From contig OZ220733.1 in assembly GCA_965116875.1 (NCBI GenBank), positions 4,128,001 to 4,192,000 on the forward strand: a stretch of DNA of 64,000 nt. The letters run 5' to 3'. Of the stretch, positions 22,626 to 27,600 are shown piece by piece. This stretch comes from Candidatus Latescibacterota bacterium (GTDB lineage: Bacteria; Latescibacterota; UBA2968; GCA-2709665). The stretch's first letter is position 1. Every line of letters starts with the position of its first letter. A program made the translations under genes and the position numbers. Under the pieces are notes generated by a model, which saw nothing but the letters and a program-made list of their open reading frames with translations, was not told where the DNA came from and did no database searches.

Positions 22626-22938
22626 CAGGATTGTCCTGTTTCACTTTGACGGAGACTTCACTGGCGGTGACCGCTGTCCGCCTCTCTGAAGAGGCGACCG
22701 GTCTTTCGGATTTCCCGCGGCTGGATGCTGAAGGCGTAGCGCGCAGCGATTGGCGCCTTCGGCTGTGTGGCGATTTTCATGTCGGACGATGTCTCACGGT
22801 CGGGCTGGCTATTCGACGCTTGAGTATCCGGTTCGGTTTCTGAAAACCGGCTTCATCTGATCGAATTAAACACCTGATTATCAATTATATAGCCCGTTGG
22901 GACAGAAAACAGTCCAAGCGCGGCGTCCAGGCAGCATA

Positions 22939-22972
22939 AGAAAAAACACGCCGGTAGCAGCGTGTTTTTTCT
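22939..22972 (-). terminator. Intrinsic terminator after the redoxin operon
   Basis: agaaaaaacacgc-loop-gcgtgttttttct hairpin with a U-tract on both strands. Confidence 0.8.
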
Positions 22973-22995
22973 GTTCCGATTTACCCTGCCTGAAC

Positions 22996-23973
22996 TTATG
23001 GCACGCTCTTGCCGAAGTTCTTGGCGAATTCAAGAAAATCCGTGAAGTCGACCAGGCCGTTTCCATCCAGGTCGAAGGTCGGGTTGTCGGTGCTGAAGGC
23101 CTGGGCGAAGGCGACGAAGTCGCTGAATCCGATTTGTCCGTCATGGTCGAAGTCGGCCCGGGGATTGAGGGGTACAACGATGACCGCTCCGGAAACAGCG
23201 AGCGTGATGCTTCTGTTTTCCGGATCGTCGCTCAGGATTGTCAGGTTGCCGGAGAAGGGTCCGGATTCCGCCGGAGTGAATGTGATCGCCACTCTCGCGC
23301 TGTCTCCTGCCGCGACCGTTACCTCGGTCGTGTTAATAGAGATTTCCTCGAGATCGGATTGAATGTTGCTGATCGTGAGCGATTCTCCTCCGGTATTGTA
23401 CACGACCAGGGTGAGCGTTTTGGATACTCCGGCTGAAACGTCCTCGCCAAAGTCGAGTGAAGGTTTCGAAAGATCGATCGCCGGCGGCGGAACGCTCAGC
23501 AGTTCCCGGATACGCGCGGCCGTTGCGGTGATTGACGCAGGTTTTCGTATCCCGATGTGACGGATAATGCCCTTGCGGTCCACGACAAGCGTATGGTCAA
23601 CGCCGAGAGTTCTCGGAAACGCGCGGCCGGCCCGGAGGAGAAGCGGGAACGTGACACCGGTGACTCTTTGAAAGTCCCGCAGTTCCGATTTGCTGCCATT
23701 GTAGACGTCGAGTCCCAGAACCGTCAGGCTGTCATCCTGGAACGCCCTCCAAATCTGTCTTTCTATAGACGGACCCGTCTGTCTGCACAGGTCTCAGTTA
23801 TGGCCCAGGTAGTAGAGCACGAAGACGCGCCCCATGTAATCTGCGGGCGTGTAGGTCTTGTCATCCAACCCCGTGAGCGAGAAGGTCGGTACTGTGTCGC
23901 CGACCTTCTGAGCCCGTGCAGACGCAGGCGCGAAGAGTCCCAGAATCACTGCGGCAATCAAGGGTCGGTACAT
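22996..23973 (-). CDS. Putative selenoprotein B: exported redoxin (UDLC) + Ig-like domain + dockerin/EF-hand-like tail
   Basis: ATG 23973 with RBS gagg; signal peptide MYRPLIAAVILGLFAPASARA; VLYYLGHN-TGA(23794-23796)-DLCRQTGP, then open in frame to TAA 22996; 325 aa with Sec. Confidence 0.85.
23767..23793 (-). promoter_or_regulatory. Candidate bacterial SECIS, gene B
   Basis: AGACAGA-CGGG-UCCGUCU hairpin (one A.C mismatch), loop at +17 from UGA. Confidence 0.5.
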
Positions 23974-24027
23974 GGGATACCTCTTTCAGGAAGGGAAAGT
24001 CCTGCGGGTGTATACGCCCGGGGAAAC

Positions 24028-25011
24028 TCATGGCACGCTCTTGCCGAAGTTCTTGGCGAATTCGAGGAAGTCCGGGAAGTCGACTACGCCGTTCCCATTC
24101 AGGTCGAAGGTCGGGTTGTCGGTGCTGAAGGCCTGGGCGAAGGCGACGAAGTCGCTGAATCCGATTTGTCCGTCATTGTCGAAGTCCGCCCGGGGATTGA
24201 CCGGGACTACGATGGCGGTTCCGGAAATCGCGACGGTAACGGTGCCCTTCTCCGGGTCGTCGCTGGAAATGGTAATCGTCCCGGAAAACGGACCGCCCTC
24301 CGTGGGCGTAAAGGTGATGTCGACGGTAGCGCTGTCGCCCGGTGCGACCGTAAGTTCCGTCATGCTGAACGTGACGCCCTCCAGGTCGGACTCCAGGTTC
24401 GTAATGCTGAGGTCCTCCCCTCCCGTATTCTTCACGACGAGGGTTACGGTCCTGGTTTCGCCGGCCGGAACGTCCTGGCCGAAGTCGAGCGAAGTACCTG
24501 GAACATCGATTGCCGGCGGCTGAACGGTCAGCAATTCCCGGACGCTCGCCGCCGCTGCGCTGAGACCGGAAGCGCCGCGCCCGATGTGACGGACAATCCC
24601 TTCGCGGTCCGCGACCAGCAGAGTGTGGGTCCCGTGAGATCCCCTGATATTGCCTGCCTGAAGCAGGAGGGGAAACGAGATCGTGGACACGGACTGAAAA
24701 TTCCTGAGCTGAGCCTGACTGCCATTGTAGATGTCAAGTCCCAGGACCGCAAAGCCGTCATCATCCTGGAACGCCTTCCAGATCTGTTGTTCTATGGACG
24801 GACCCGCCGCCCGGCAGGTCGGTCAGTTATGGCCCAGGTAGTAAAGAGCCAGAACACTTCCCTCATAATTCGCGGAGGCATAGGTTTTGCCGTCCAGCCC
24901 CGTAAGCGAAAACGTTGGTACCGCGTCACCGACGTTCTGGGCTTCCGCGGGCCCGCCCGGGCAAAACCCCAGGACCAGCAGGAACACGACGCAGGCAGCG
25001 ATTCGACCCAT
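24028..25011 (-). CDS. Putative selenoprotein A: exported redoxin (UPTC) + Ig-like domain + dockerin/EF-hand-like tail
   Basis: AGGAGG RBS; signal peptide; LYYLGHN-TGA(24823-24825)-PTCRAAGPSIEQQIWKAFQ joins the 24028..24690 ORF in frame; 327 aa with Sec. Confidence 0.85.
24796..24822 (-). promoter_or_regulatory. Candidate bacterial SECIS, gene A
   Basis: GGGCGG-CGGGU-CCGUCC hairpin, loop at +17 from UGA. Confidence 0.5.
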
Positions 25012-25045
25012 TGCAATCCTCCTTTGAGATGGTGTGTGGTCTGCG

Positions 25046-26629
25046 TCAGAAATAGGTCTTCAGACGCATTTCAAGGCCATTGAACGGCAACACGAGATAG
25101 CATGTCCCGGATGTGCACGCGGCGCCGCCTCGCCTGCGGCCGGCGAATACGAAGGCTTCGTATCGATCGAGAAAGGCGACGTTCAGGTTGACCGACAGCC
25201 AGGAACGAGCCCCGGTCTCGACCCGGTCCGGCGTTGCGCCGTCATCCACTTCGAATGGATCGTTGGTGCGATCCAGTATGACTGCGGCGCCCACACCCGA
25301 GGGATGCTGGAAGGAAAACTGGGTAAAGACGTCCTGGAACACCGGCTGGTTTCGGGGCTGCCTGGCCGCGCGCCGGACCTGCAGATCGAAACCCAGGACA
25401 GACCCTCCGGGTGTAATGGATTCGACCCCCACACCGCCGATCCGGTGCATTCCGATTCCCTTCAGTTCGTCTTTTCCCCAATCAAAAAAGACGGTAGACG
25501 TCAAGCTGTGCCCGCCGGGCTGCCGAGGCAGTTCAACGTCCACGCCCAGATACCGCTCGTTGAACGTCGTTGAAAAGCCGGGCGCCAGTTCGTTCTCTCC
25601 CTTGCTGACGTTTGCCGTCAGCGTGCCCAGTCCGAAAATCGAATACGTTGCTTCCACCTGGTAGCCCGTTTCAGCATCGGCAATCAGGGCATGCGTGGAC
25701 CGGTTGAGCAGGACGGCCGCGTGTTCGCGGACCAGGGACGGGGGATCGTTGAAGCTGTAGGCGAATTTCTCATAGTCCTTGTATTCCAGGCTCAATCCCA
25801 GATTGGAAATGCCGGCGTTGGCCGAAAGATACAGAGCGCTGCCGTCCACGTGCGCGTCAATCAGCCCGGCGTATTCGGCGTAGACGGTCGCATAGCCGTC
25901 CGGAAAGCCCGATGCTTCAATTGCGGGCGTGACGTCGAATTCCAGAAAACCCGACCACGTTCGCGTGGAGTCAATCCTGGCGGCGTGATGGCTTACGGCC
26001 GTGACGCCGGCCTTGATCCGGCTCGTCGGTCGCAGCGAGACTTCCCCTCCGAGAAGCCAGTTTTCACGCCGTGGTACGTCCCGCAGAGGATCACCCACCC
26101 GCACCGCCGGCGGGATGTCGCTTAATACTGGACGGCCGATCAGGGCTTTTGCCTCGGCCCGGGGACCCGCCCAGGTGGCCATGCCGCCCTCGAGGTCTCG
26201 GGACGGCGAATAGCGGCGCCGGTATTGTCCGCTCTCCAGAACGACGCCAGGCAGATCGAAGGCCCTGAGCGTGATGCCGCGACCCAGGATGGCGTAGTAG
26301 TTGCCCGCAACCAGCTCGACCGGTCCCTGCGACCAGCGCAGGTGCTTCTGGGAAACATGCACGACCTGGTATTCAACCTGCGACAGCGGCGAGCCGGGAG
26401 CGGTGTTGCGCCATGCATTGAAAATCTCTGCCCGTAGTCCGGCCTGAAGACCGTGCCGCGTGTAATCGACGTCGAACTGCTCATAAAGTGACGAAACCGC
26501 CAGCGAGTCCGAGCCCGGGACGCGTCCCCGCTGGATTTCGGTCAGGCTGGATACGGTCACCTGCGCGACGACAGGCTTCGACGTCGCCAGCAGAAGGAGC
26601 ATTATCAGGCTATTGGTCAGCGCTCGCAT
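25046..26629 (-). CDS. DUF6029-like outer-membrane beta-barrel protein
   Basis: Signal peptide, AGNYYAILGRGITLR, EYKDY, NDPP, C-terminal GRRRGGAACTSGTCYLVLPFNGLEMRLKTYF ending in Phe. Confidence 0.75.
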   Translation of the reverse strand: MRALTNSLIMLLLLATSKPVVAQVTVSSLTEIQRGRVPGSDSLAVSSLYEQFDVDYTRHGLQAGLRAEIFNAWRNTAPGSPLSQVEYQVVHVSQKHLRWSQGPVELVAGNYYAILGRGITLRAFDLPGVVLESGQYRRRYSPSRDLEGGMATWAGPRAEAKALIGRPVLSDIPPAVRVGDPLRDVPRRENWLLGGEVSLRPTSRIKAGVTAVSHHAARIDSTRTWSGFLEFDVTPAIEASGFPDGYATVYAEYAGLIDAHVDGSALYLSANAGISNLGLSLEYKDYEKFAYSFNDPPSLVREHAAVLLNRSTHALIADAETGYQVEATYSIFGLGTLTANVSKGENELAPGFSTTFNERYLGVDVELPRQPGGHSLTSTVFFDWGKDELKGIGMHRIGGVGVESITPGGSVLGFDLQVRRAARQPRNQPVFQDVFTQFSFQHPSGVGAAVILDRTNDPFEVDDGATPDRVETGARSWLSVNLNVAFLDRYEAFVFAGRRRGGAACTSGTCYLVLPFNGLEMRLKTYF

Positions 26630-27149
26630 CGGCGTTCGCCCCGTCGTCGGCGCCGGGTTCGGGAAACAGCGCCTCGACTGCCGTCAGCAACACTTGGGCG
26701 TTTTTCGAATGATATCCGACCTGCCGCAGCGCAATCTCTCCGTCCGGGGTGATCAGGAGCGTCGTCGGCAGGACGTTCACCTGCATTCGCCGCATGACCG
26801 CGCTGTCAGAGTCGAGGACGATCGGGAAGTTGACCTTTCTCGCCCGCAGAAAGGGTTTCACACGGTTCTGCCCACGCGGCCCGTCCACGTTTACGCCAAG
26901 TACGGTAAGCCCTGATTTGCCGTACTTCTCGTGAATCTTCTGGAGCTTGGGCATCGCCTTGACGCAAGGCTTGCAGTAGGTCGCCCAGAAATCCAGAAGT
27001 ACCGGACCCTTTGTCAGCAGGTTTTTGAGGTTGACGCGTTCGCCCTGCAGGTCCCGGAGGTTGAAGTCGGGGGCCGAGGCGGCGTTCAGCGTCGCTGCGC
27101 CCAGGGAAATTGAGGCGGCGATGGTCAGGGTATGAACGATCGTCTTCAT
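26610..27149 (-). CDS. TlpA-family thiol-disulfide oxidoreductase, exported
   Basis: Signal peptide, APDFNL, DFWATYCKPC, VLPTTLLI. Confidence 0.92.
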   Translation of the reverse strand: MKTIVHTLTIAASISLGAATLNAASAPDFNLRDLQGERVNLKNLLTKGPVLLDFWATYCKPCVKAMPKLQKIHEKYGKSGLTVLGVNVDGPRGQNRVKPFLRARKVNFPIVLDSDSAVMRRMQVNVLPTTLLITPDGEIALRQVGYHSKNAQVLLTAVEALFPEPGADDGANADASADQ

Positions 27150-27600
27150 TCCCGCAGTTTCTCCTGTTTGCCTTGTCGATCGGCGTGTGTCGCCCTTTAA
27201 TTGAAATACGCCTGAAGGTTTCTCATGGTTCCGGACCGGAGTTCGCCAGCAAAATCCGCGCCGAACGGATTGCGGATCAATAAACGATAACCGAAAAATC
27301 TCGCTTCATCAAGGGCTTTTTTGCGTTGTTTCCGTGATGCCCTCAACGTGTCAGTGCGGACTGATGTCTGAAGAAGGGGACGGAGAAACAGCGGGCTTGT
27401 TGCCGAAAGGCGGTTTCCGCTTGCTGCGCGTCTCCGGTCGATCTATATTTGGGGTCGATATTTTCTCTCTTTGTCGCGGGCGACCGGTTCAATATGTCGC
27501 CCGGGTTCCGCAAGGTCCGCTGTGATGGTCTCAGCAGCGTGGCCGTTCGCAAGGCCGCCTGTTTTACGGACGGTCGTTGAATTTTACCGGAAGGGTCGCC

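Follow-up and report, generated by a model that had tools for sequence, protein, structure and literature searches.

What might four closely packed genes for putatively exported redox proteins, two of them with an in-frame TGA codon, do together in the envelope of a bacterium? The question arises from a locus of a Candidatus Latescibacterota bacterium (assembly GCA_965116875.1, contig OZ220733.1, positions 4,128,001 to 4,192,000); throughout, the window means this whole stretch of 64,000 nucleotides. On its minus strand four tightly packed genes follow each other in the order TlpA-like thiol:disulfide oxidoreductase, outer-membrane beta-barrel of the Pfam family DUF6029, selenoredoxin A and selenoredoxin B. 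An initial annotation, made from the letters of the sequence, had seen in them a candidate envelope selenium-redox operon. Our comparison leaves very little doubt about the selenocysteine (Sec) in the last two genes and strongly supports a conserved pairing of the first two. Whether all four form an envelope thiol/selenol redox module of this bacterium is, in our estimate, evenly balanced.

Results

Decoding of the in-frame TGA codons

Selenoredoxin A (24028..25011, minus strand; 327 amino acids) carries the motif U63-P-T-C66, with U63 encoded by the TGA at 24823-24825, and ends at a normal TGA stop. Selenoredoxin B (22996..23973, minus strand; 325 amino acids) carries U60-D-L-C63, with U60 encoded by the TGA at 23794-23796. 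Judged from sequence, it is nearly certain that A and B are genuine selenoproteins, namely putatively exported, TlpA/ResA-like thiol:disulfide oxidoreductases with Sec where a CxxC motif would have its first, attacking Cys. We compared 51 homologous genes, taken from the window and 40 loci. The codon for the first redox residue in G-x-x-[U/C]-x-x-C is TGA in 46 of the 51 and TGT or TGC in the other five (genomes G018, G020, G054, G049 and G048), and the frame is conserved on both sides of it. TGA is kept at this catalytic position even among homologues as distant as about 30% identity, and the redoxin matches in 60 relatives mostly contain exactly one TGA. Orthologues of gene A have TGA at this codon in every g1 genome searched, and those of gene B, 86-91% identical, have it in G003, G008 and G010. 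In alignments with solved TlpA-like structures the U falls on the first Cys of WCGVC/WCPPC (2ls5, E 3.7e-12; 3kcm, 1.7e-9).

The genome (5.45 Mb) also holds a full Sec machinery. selA, selB and the tRNA-Sec gene form a cluster, head to tail on one strand, at C1:184347-187783; the tRNA-Sec scores 73.4 bits and has the anticodon TCA (ARAGORN: tRNA-SeC), and selA (549.3 bits), selB (373.5) and selD (366.3) all lie over their cut-offs. The initial annotation had read both TGA codons as Sec and had named selA, selB, selC and selD as the genes to look for; all four are in the genome, and the machinery, the TGA/Cys column and the hairpin described below agree with its reading. The selD gene itself (C1:1070717-1071640) carries an in-frame TGA, and its product is probably a selenoprotein as well.

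Could the TGA codons nevertheless be real stops, so that A and B are pseudogenes or pairs of short genes? It speaks for this that database entries are split at the TGA and that Rfam gives no SECIS match. A collection of 5.8 billion proteins holds only C-terminal fragments of the A/B kind, 195-241 amino acids long, one of them named 'DUF1573 domain-containing protein', just as the initial annotation had expected when it claimed that gene callers split both genes. Against real stops stand the 46 TGA and five Cys codons at one catalytic position with protein-level conservation on either side, the Sec machinery, and a SECIS-like hairpin under synonymous-site constraint. We regard this explanation as effectively refuted and its remaining probability as negligible. 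A use of TGA as a standard amino acid codon was ruled out, since gene A and the barrel gene both terminate with TGA.

A SECIS-like hairpin behind the TGA

In the bacterial selenocysteine insertion sequence (SECIS) of the E. coli type a hairpin directly follows the UGA; for E. coli, PMC8659212 describes G23 and U24 as conserved in the apical loop and gives nt 15-31 as the minimal element. Counting the U of UGA as nt 1, most U forms of our family can build a stem of 4-5 bp from nt 17/18-21 with 26-29/30, closed by the loop G22-G23-U24-C25. The GGUC loop thus sets G23 and U24 at the same places as in the E. coli element. In gene A (UGA plus hairpin, 24790..24825, minus strand; core stem and loop at ~24797-24808) the core stem is nt 18-21/26-29. 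In gene B (23767..23796, minus strand) the hairpin spans nt 17-30, with the stem AGACG/CGUCU and the loop GGUC, and the minimum-free-energy fold favours an overlapping hairpin (-13.9 kcal/mol, z -2.6). Across 43 distinct sequences the core pairs 21-32, 22-31, 23-30 and 24-29 (numbering of alignment A3) are formed in 40, 41, 34 and 39, respectively. The covariation score of 0.220, as against 0.167 in shuffles (0/500 reach it), is above that of every slid register.

The loop encodes Gly-Pro, so that protein conservation accounts for part of its constancy. Its Gly codon is GGT in 35/36 sequences; GGT makes up 19.5% of the Gly codons in the long open reading frames of the window. Where Cys forms have a Gly at this place, it is GGT in 1/4 and GGC or GGG in 3/4. 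In the distant lineages L075, L086, L095 and L096 a hairpin lies at the same place with another sequence and register. Three results weigh against a SECIS. No common structure of the 43 UGA contexts emerged from RNAalifold, because the register of the hairpin shifts between lineages. A scan of 22800-27400 against Rfam (E <= 10) returned two chance-level matches and no SECIS family. The synonymous-recoding test gave a moderate signal, with a mean z of -0.95 and 20/43 U forms below -1, as compared with a mean z of -0.07 in the five Cys forms. Like the fdhF-type SECIS of E. coli, the hairpin follows directly after the UGA and has G23 and U24 in its apical loop. It differs in its stem of 4-5 bp in many members, in that no bulged U17 is evident, in the shifted register of some lineages and in an alternative, longer hairpin in gene A.

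Architecture and location of the selenoredoxins

A profile search of all four proteins, as suggested with the initial annotation, gave AhpC/TSA in the TlpA-like protein and in A and B, and DUF6029 in the barrel. In the two selenoredoxins the AhpC/TSA matches reach 2.9e-10 and 3.5e-12. Past the redoxin, Pfam recognises a HYDIN/DUF1573-type immunoglobulin-like (Ig-like) domain and an EF-hand/dockerin-like tail, and NCBIfam adds choice-of-anchor D and dockerin_GC (NF041540; 29.8 in A and 26.7 in B at a cut-off of 29). Pfam Dockerin_1 is unmatched in A and B, where the EF-hand matches stay near their cut-offs, and no NCBIfam selenoprotein model reaches its cut-off on either protein. A and B are paralogues, 57% identical in the redoxin domain and 72% in the Ig-dockerin part.

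The redoxin domain is matched in 56 of 61 related Latescibacterota genomes. Members of the family in f1, f2 and f4 consist of a signal peptide, a U/CxxC redoxin, 0-5 Ig-like domains and a dockerin-like tail, and dockerin-like tails occur in nearly all members. In f3 a type A sorting domain of the type IX secretion system (T9SS) takes the place of this tail (TIGR04183; 37.9 and 34.4 bits, cut-off 23). That one surface-display tail is exchanged for another is our chief reason to place these proteins at the outer membrane or beyond it. The view in the initial annotation that A and B are surface or exported selenoproteins is accordingly rated here as plausible, on the strength of the dockerin-like tails and the T9SS tails of f3. 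Protein B finds 108 matches in the genome, which mostly cover the dockerin-like tail alone, and three cohesin matches lie over the cut-off (C1:1571003, 683111 and 685094); it seems that the organism anchors many of its exported proteins on scaffolds.

Three further observations concern this family. Genome G020 has three tandem redoxin genes behind its barrel gene (C1:5120875-5123110, locus L073), a U form, a Cys form and a U form; the Cys copy retains a hairpin-like sequence after its TGT, which suggests a recent change from Sec to Cys. Weak matches to protein B with an in-frame TGA, one of them also with a TAG, lie at C1:2031628-2032149, 1560269-1560541 and 1722844-1723029; these could be further candidate selenoproteins or chance matches. 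In g6 (L089:8643-11160, L087 and L091) a gene for an extracytoplasmic function sigma factor and one for a 427-amino-acid protein lie 1-3 kb from the stand-alone selenoredoxins; the latter protein has a C-terminal AhpC/TSA-Redoxin domain. These genes might provide another redox partner or a regulator.

The TlpA-like protein and the DUF6029 barrel

The first gene (26610..27149, minus strand) encodes 179 amino acids with the active site C59-K-P-C62, the cis-Pro P128 and a putative signal peptide without a lipobox Cys. It matches AhpC/TSA (2.7e-25) and Redoxin (8.8e-20) in Pfam, and CKPC and P128 are invariant in 21/21 aligned orthologues. With 109.8 bits at a cut-off of 170 for the ResA subfamily in NCBIfam, it stays below the equivalog cut-offs and is therefore assigned to TlpA/ResA at the family level only. 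The second gene (25046..26629, minus strand) encodes 527 amino acids ending in a C-terminal Phe, with a hairpin C505-T-S-G-T-C510. Its Pfam match to DUF6029 (PF19494; 51.8 bits, cut-off 27) is limited to residues 53-124, and the protein aligns over its full length with members from Bacteroidetes and Ignavibacteria that match the entire Pfam model with 200 bits. Common to all of them, and invariant, are G497, R499, G502, C505, G508, C510 and F527; within a 21-row alignment C505, G508 and C510 do not vary either. The Cys pair picked out in the initial annotation is hence a constant feature of the DUF6029 members compared.

An AF2 model of the protein predicts a large barrel of ~22-24 strands (pLDDT 69.7, pTM 0.66), with low confidence at residues 113-143 and in the Cys hairpin. 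Foldseek searches with this model found generic outer-membrane barrels only (TonB-dependent transporters, ushers, AlgE, porins; TM 0.28-0.49), so that no specific fold can be assigned.

How far does the pairing of the two genes reach? Our alignment of DUF6029 yielded 41 loci, namely 39 from Latescibacterota, one from a Bacteroidetes metagenome-assembled genome (MAG) and one from an Ignavibacteria MAG, and in every one of them (41/41) the gene directly upstream of DUF6029 encodes a CKPC TlpA. PF19494 occurs in 52 of 201 sampled genomes from the phylum of the Bacteroidetes MAG. At the 30 best loci of Bacteroidota a TlpA-like CxxC gene is found within 1.5 kb of DUF6029 in 25, upstream on the same strand in 20 and divergent in five, and the barrels of all 30 have C-x-x-G-x-C ~15 residues before an aromatic C-terminus. 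It is thus strongly supported that TlpA and the DUF6029 barrel are an ancient, invariant gene pair of the phyla of the Fibrobacteres-Chlorobi-Bacteroidetes (FCB) group. Among 21 loci of the Bacteroidota type an Omp28-like protein is encoded at most four genes away in 15, directly adjacent in 10, and a protein with a T9SS tail at most four genes away in 13; all 23 Omp28-like reading frames carry the motif LxE(E/D)xT...CxxC. The link of DUF6029 with TlpA and Omp28-like genes in Bacteroidota, named in the initial annotation, therefore holds in the loci surveyed.

Three Bacteroidota genomes have, directly upstream of TlpA-DUF6029, genes for CGPC proteins of ~485 amino acids with T9SS tails (L173:3929-5377, L177:3885-5348 and L179). 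We rejected these proteins as redoxins, with a weak match to the local TlpA profile (~1e-8) and a Pfam match to the sorting tail only (L173). A second, diverged copy of DUF6029 follows a redoxin-like gene without a TGA at G017:C1:4185464-4187890, apparently part of a paralogous TlpA-barrel pair.

A predicted complex of TlpA and barrel

The initial annotation had suggested predicting a complex of the two proteins, and such a prediction passes its controls. For barrel residues 23-527 and TlpA residues 25-165 the interface score ipSAE is 0.81, as against 0.50 for the best control. The ipSAE mark is reached by 58/80 solved complexes and 2/110 mismatched pairs, a calibration that is only rough here since custom alignments were used. 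The runs share at least 74% of their contacts, with a pLDDT of the partner of at least 80. In the model the interface takes in TlpA residues 56-60, which belong to the active site and include C59, and barrel residues 110-128, 295-304 and 506-508. Mapped on the strands of the AF2 barrel, the predicted contacts of TlpA fall on both barrel termini and on every second inter-strand turn (58-62, 100-105, 154-155, 200-206, 269-282, 326-336, 364-379, 405-411, 441-445 and 485-491). The termini of outer-membrane barrels face the periplasm, and these contacts would therefore mark the periplasmic rim. TlpA would also reach the conserved long segments 110-128 and 295-304 and the hairpin tip 506-508, which start, by strand alternation, from the outer side. 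The model thus places the CxxC/cis-Pro face of TlpA at the periplasmic mouth, on the most conserved segments of the barrel and on the tip of its CxxGxC hairpin. It counts against the prediction that a control in which the barrel was replaced still scored 0.50. Taken together, we consider it quite probable that TlpA and the barrel are a physical pair.

Layout of the locus and linkage of the selenoredoxins to the pair

The DUF6029 gene overlaps the TlpA gene by 20 nt, and gaps of 34 nt and 54 nt separate the barrel gene from gene A and gene A from gene B. An intrinsic terminator, a strong fold with a stem and then a U run, closes the four genes (~22938..22972, minus strand). Its fold has -38.3 kcal/mol and a z of -8.5, and 0/200 shuffles are as good; a simple consensus terminator scan does not list it, and its support comes from folding. 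The flanking genes are TilS downstream and a divergent GFO/IDH/MocA oxidoreductase upstream. Co-orientation, overlap, gaps and terminator were all placed correctly in the initial annotation, and its redox motifs CKPC, CTSGTC, UPTC and UDLC are present in the genes to which it had ascribed them. All four proteins begin with hydrophobic N-termini, ending LNA-AS, VVA-QV, AEA-QN and ASA-RA, which by eye are putative signal peptides.

Do the selenoredoxins belong to the TlpA-barrel pair? At 21 of the 41 DUF6029 loci a selenoredoxin gene lies directly downstream of the barrel gene. All 17 f1 loci compared have one to three redoxin genes directly behind the barrel, and the same arrangement occurs in g8 of f2 (L082, L086) and twice in G038. 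In the f3 genome G057 (L095) TlpA is divergent and the redoxin convergent, and all three genes are still neighbours. Synteny in relatives, which the initial annotation had proposed to check, is thus found in f1, g8, G038 and, rearranged, in G057; it is missing in g6, where the genes are unlinked, and in f4, which gives no DUF6029 match. In 61 genomes, which as kin are not independent, barrel and redoxin occur together in 50 and are both missing in four (two of them in f1); six have the redoxin only and one the barrel only. The two copies in G038, a genome of 8.4 Mb, are near-identical TlpA-DUF6029-redoxin (UGIC) sets (L133 and L134; C1 ~1133837-1135980 and 3201266-3203409); the redoxin of each changes frame after ~residue 88, by a frameshift, as a decaying gene or through an assembly error.

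Several findings stand against a joint function. The six genomes with a redoxin match and no DUF6029 match include all three of f4 (G036 is only 82% complete). The 21 genomes of g6 have the order TlpA-DUF6029-TilS-FtsH; their selenoredoxin genes are found at other places, without a conserved redox neighbour. In f1 the GFO and TilS flanks are conserved too, so that synteny there is weak evidence and possibly reflects an inherited order. The selenoredoxins might therefore act on their own, as secreted disulfide reductases or antioxidant enzymes with another electron source; their place would then be inherited gene order, and TlpA and DUF6029 would have a separate job. This would agree with the stand-alone selenoredoxin genes of g6, g10 and G060, with the f4 redoxins and with the syntenic flanks of f1. 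It fits less well with an adjacency that is seen again in three families within the class and persists in G057, where gene orientation has changed, with the 50 of 61 genomes that have both genes, and with the analogous, non-homologous CxxC surface proteins (Omp28-like) that flank the pair in another phylum. With Omp28-like proteins beside the pair in one case and selenoredoxins in the other, phyla far apart thus have non-homologous surface proteins of the CxxC/UxxC type in this gene neighbourhood. We consider autonomous enzymes rather improbable, and give an even chance to selenoredoxins that work together with the TlpA-barrel pair.

Discussion

If the four genes do work together, how might electrons reach the cell surface? 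A DsbD-type protein would bring reducing power into the periplasm and reduce TlpA. None of the four locus proteins matches DsbD_TM in Pfam; the genome encodes one such protein elsewhere (73.9 bits, G000:C1:1968881), its sole gene of this kind. From TlpA the electrons would move on, either at the barrel or through it, and the Cys hairpin would be the simplest route. Recipients would be redoxins outside the outer membrane, here the selenoredoxins and in Bacteroidota the Omp28-like CxxC proteins. A relay from TlpA through the Cys loop of the barrel to surface or exported selenoenzymes had been proposed in the initial annotation, whose interpretation of the locus as a system finds partial support here. 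These surface redoxins might act as terminal reductants of an oxidised cell-surface substrate, for which Sec would be a faster and more oxidation-tolerant nucleophile. In its boldest form the proposal makes TlpA and DUF6029 the outer-membrane counterpart of DsbD, in which TlpA plugs the mouth of the barrel and a lumenal CxxGxC hairpin carries reducing equivalents to the surface redoxins.

Both this counterpart and the passage of electrons through the C505/C510 hairpin seem doubtful to us, the module as a whole less so, and some of our own data weigh against them. The Cys hairpin has a pLDDT <50 in the AF2 model and by strand alternation would start from the extracellular side. Where TlpA/ResA proteins typically have their cis-Pro, the selenoredoxins align with Asp or His instead, and opposite the Pro of 3kcm gene B has Asp; 2ls5, the closest solved relative, has no such Pro either. 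In addition, PMC9603273 likens DUF6029, by HHpred, to Wzi-type polysaccharide barrels.

That likeness is one reason to ask whether any electrons cross the outer membrane. DUF6029 could instead be a translocon or anchor for CxxC/UxxC proteins, or a Wzi-like barrel, with TlpA as a periplasmic chaperone-reductase that would maintain the Cys/Sec of the neighbours, or the two Cys of the barrel itself, in the proper state while these proteins pass and fold. A barrel of the predicted size, a TlpA docked at its periplasmic mouth and neighbours destined for the surface would suit such a role. Many of these neighbours have T9SS sorting tails and hence an export route already, we saw no polysaccharide genes beside the pair in the loci read, and a pure channel needs no invariant CxxGxC. 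A translocon or polysaccharide barrel therefore appears unlikely to us, about as much so as the electron relay in its specific form.

How does the proposed redox module compare with known systems? Gene 1 resembles the TlpA/ResA/CcmG reductases fed by CcdA/DsbD in its fold, CxxC, cis-Pro and export signal, and DsbD_TM is present in the genome. It differs in lying away from cytochrome-maturation genes, in having an outer-membrane barrel as its invariant partner and in scoring below the equivalog cut-offs of both ResA and TlpA. With the DsbD thiol relay the pair would share its manner of working only, a membrane protein with an invariant Cys pair between thioredoxin-fold proteins on two sides. 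There is no homology, the barrel is an outer-membrane beta-barrel rather than a helical inner-membrane protein, and the relay is hypothetical. The Omp28-related selenoprotein (NF045500, 'GOS_C', UxxC) and the Omp28 lipoproteins of Bacteroidota are, like A and B, surface-type proteins with a conserved CxxC/UxxC near TlpA-DUF6029; they are not homologous to A and B and are analogous in gene position. The protein of L136 scores 28.9 bits against NF045500 at a cut-off of 200.

Among UxxC families, Table 1 of a 2026 review (PMC13188914) lists a Prx-like thiol:disulfide oxidoreductase (PF00578), a Redoxin (PF08534) and a Thiol-disulfide isomerase-like family (cd02966). With the Prx-like PF00578 selenoproteins, compared by description, A and B share the AhpC/TSA-Redoxin fold, Sec in the leading position of UxxC, Cys homologues and a predicted redox function. 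In the A/B kind, by contrast, the redoxin forms the N-terminal part of a larger exported chain, in which 1-5 Ig-like domains and either a dockerin-like or a T9SS tail follow; proteins of this kind are found in Latescibacterota, and their genes are in many cases linked to TlpA-DUF6029. As the Prx-like kind is already in that table, A and B would be a new multidomain, secreted form of a known kind. What is new is the genomic context of these selenoproteins, namely the TlpA-DUF6029 pair and its surface redox neighbours. We found no literature report on selenoproteins in Latescibacterota, although the supplements of the surveys cited in PMC13188914 may list the A/B family. Literature searches on DUF6029 (where polysaccharide barrels turned up), on Omp28 selenoproteins and on selenocysteine with dockerin yielded no description of a TlpA-DUF6029-redoxin module.

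Close relatives of the stretch occur in metagenome runs from sponge and coral reef (X3, X4), as pieces of 150-540 nt with 0-13 differences. The RNA-library run X8 contains three short contigs. One of them, with 198 nt and 0 differences, runs over the TGA of gene A (24774-24971), and another falls within the barrel gene. No weight attaches to the parts of the stretch that X3, X4 and X8 leave uncovered. The X8 contigs show no strand, ends or single transcript, and DNA is possible in the library; the 198-nt contig is thus weak evidence of expression.

What do these findings mean for the bacterium and its relatives? With members in 56 of 61 related Latescibacterota genomes, and databases that hold 'DUF1573' fragments only, the selenoredoxins are a widespread and systematically mis-annotated selenoprotein family. 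Secreted selenoenzymes tethered to scaffolds are unusual, and in this lineage would point to a demand for rapid extracellular thiol chemistry. The TlpA-DUF6029 pair, together with its recurrent surface CxxC neighbours, offers a testable role for a Pfam family that has had no function. If an outer-membrane counterpart of DsbD did exist, it would give the bacteria of the FCB group an enzymatic reducing surface. How reducing power might reach the outer face of a diderm envelope thereby becomes a question that can be approached in tractable Bacteroidota.

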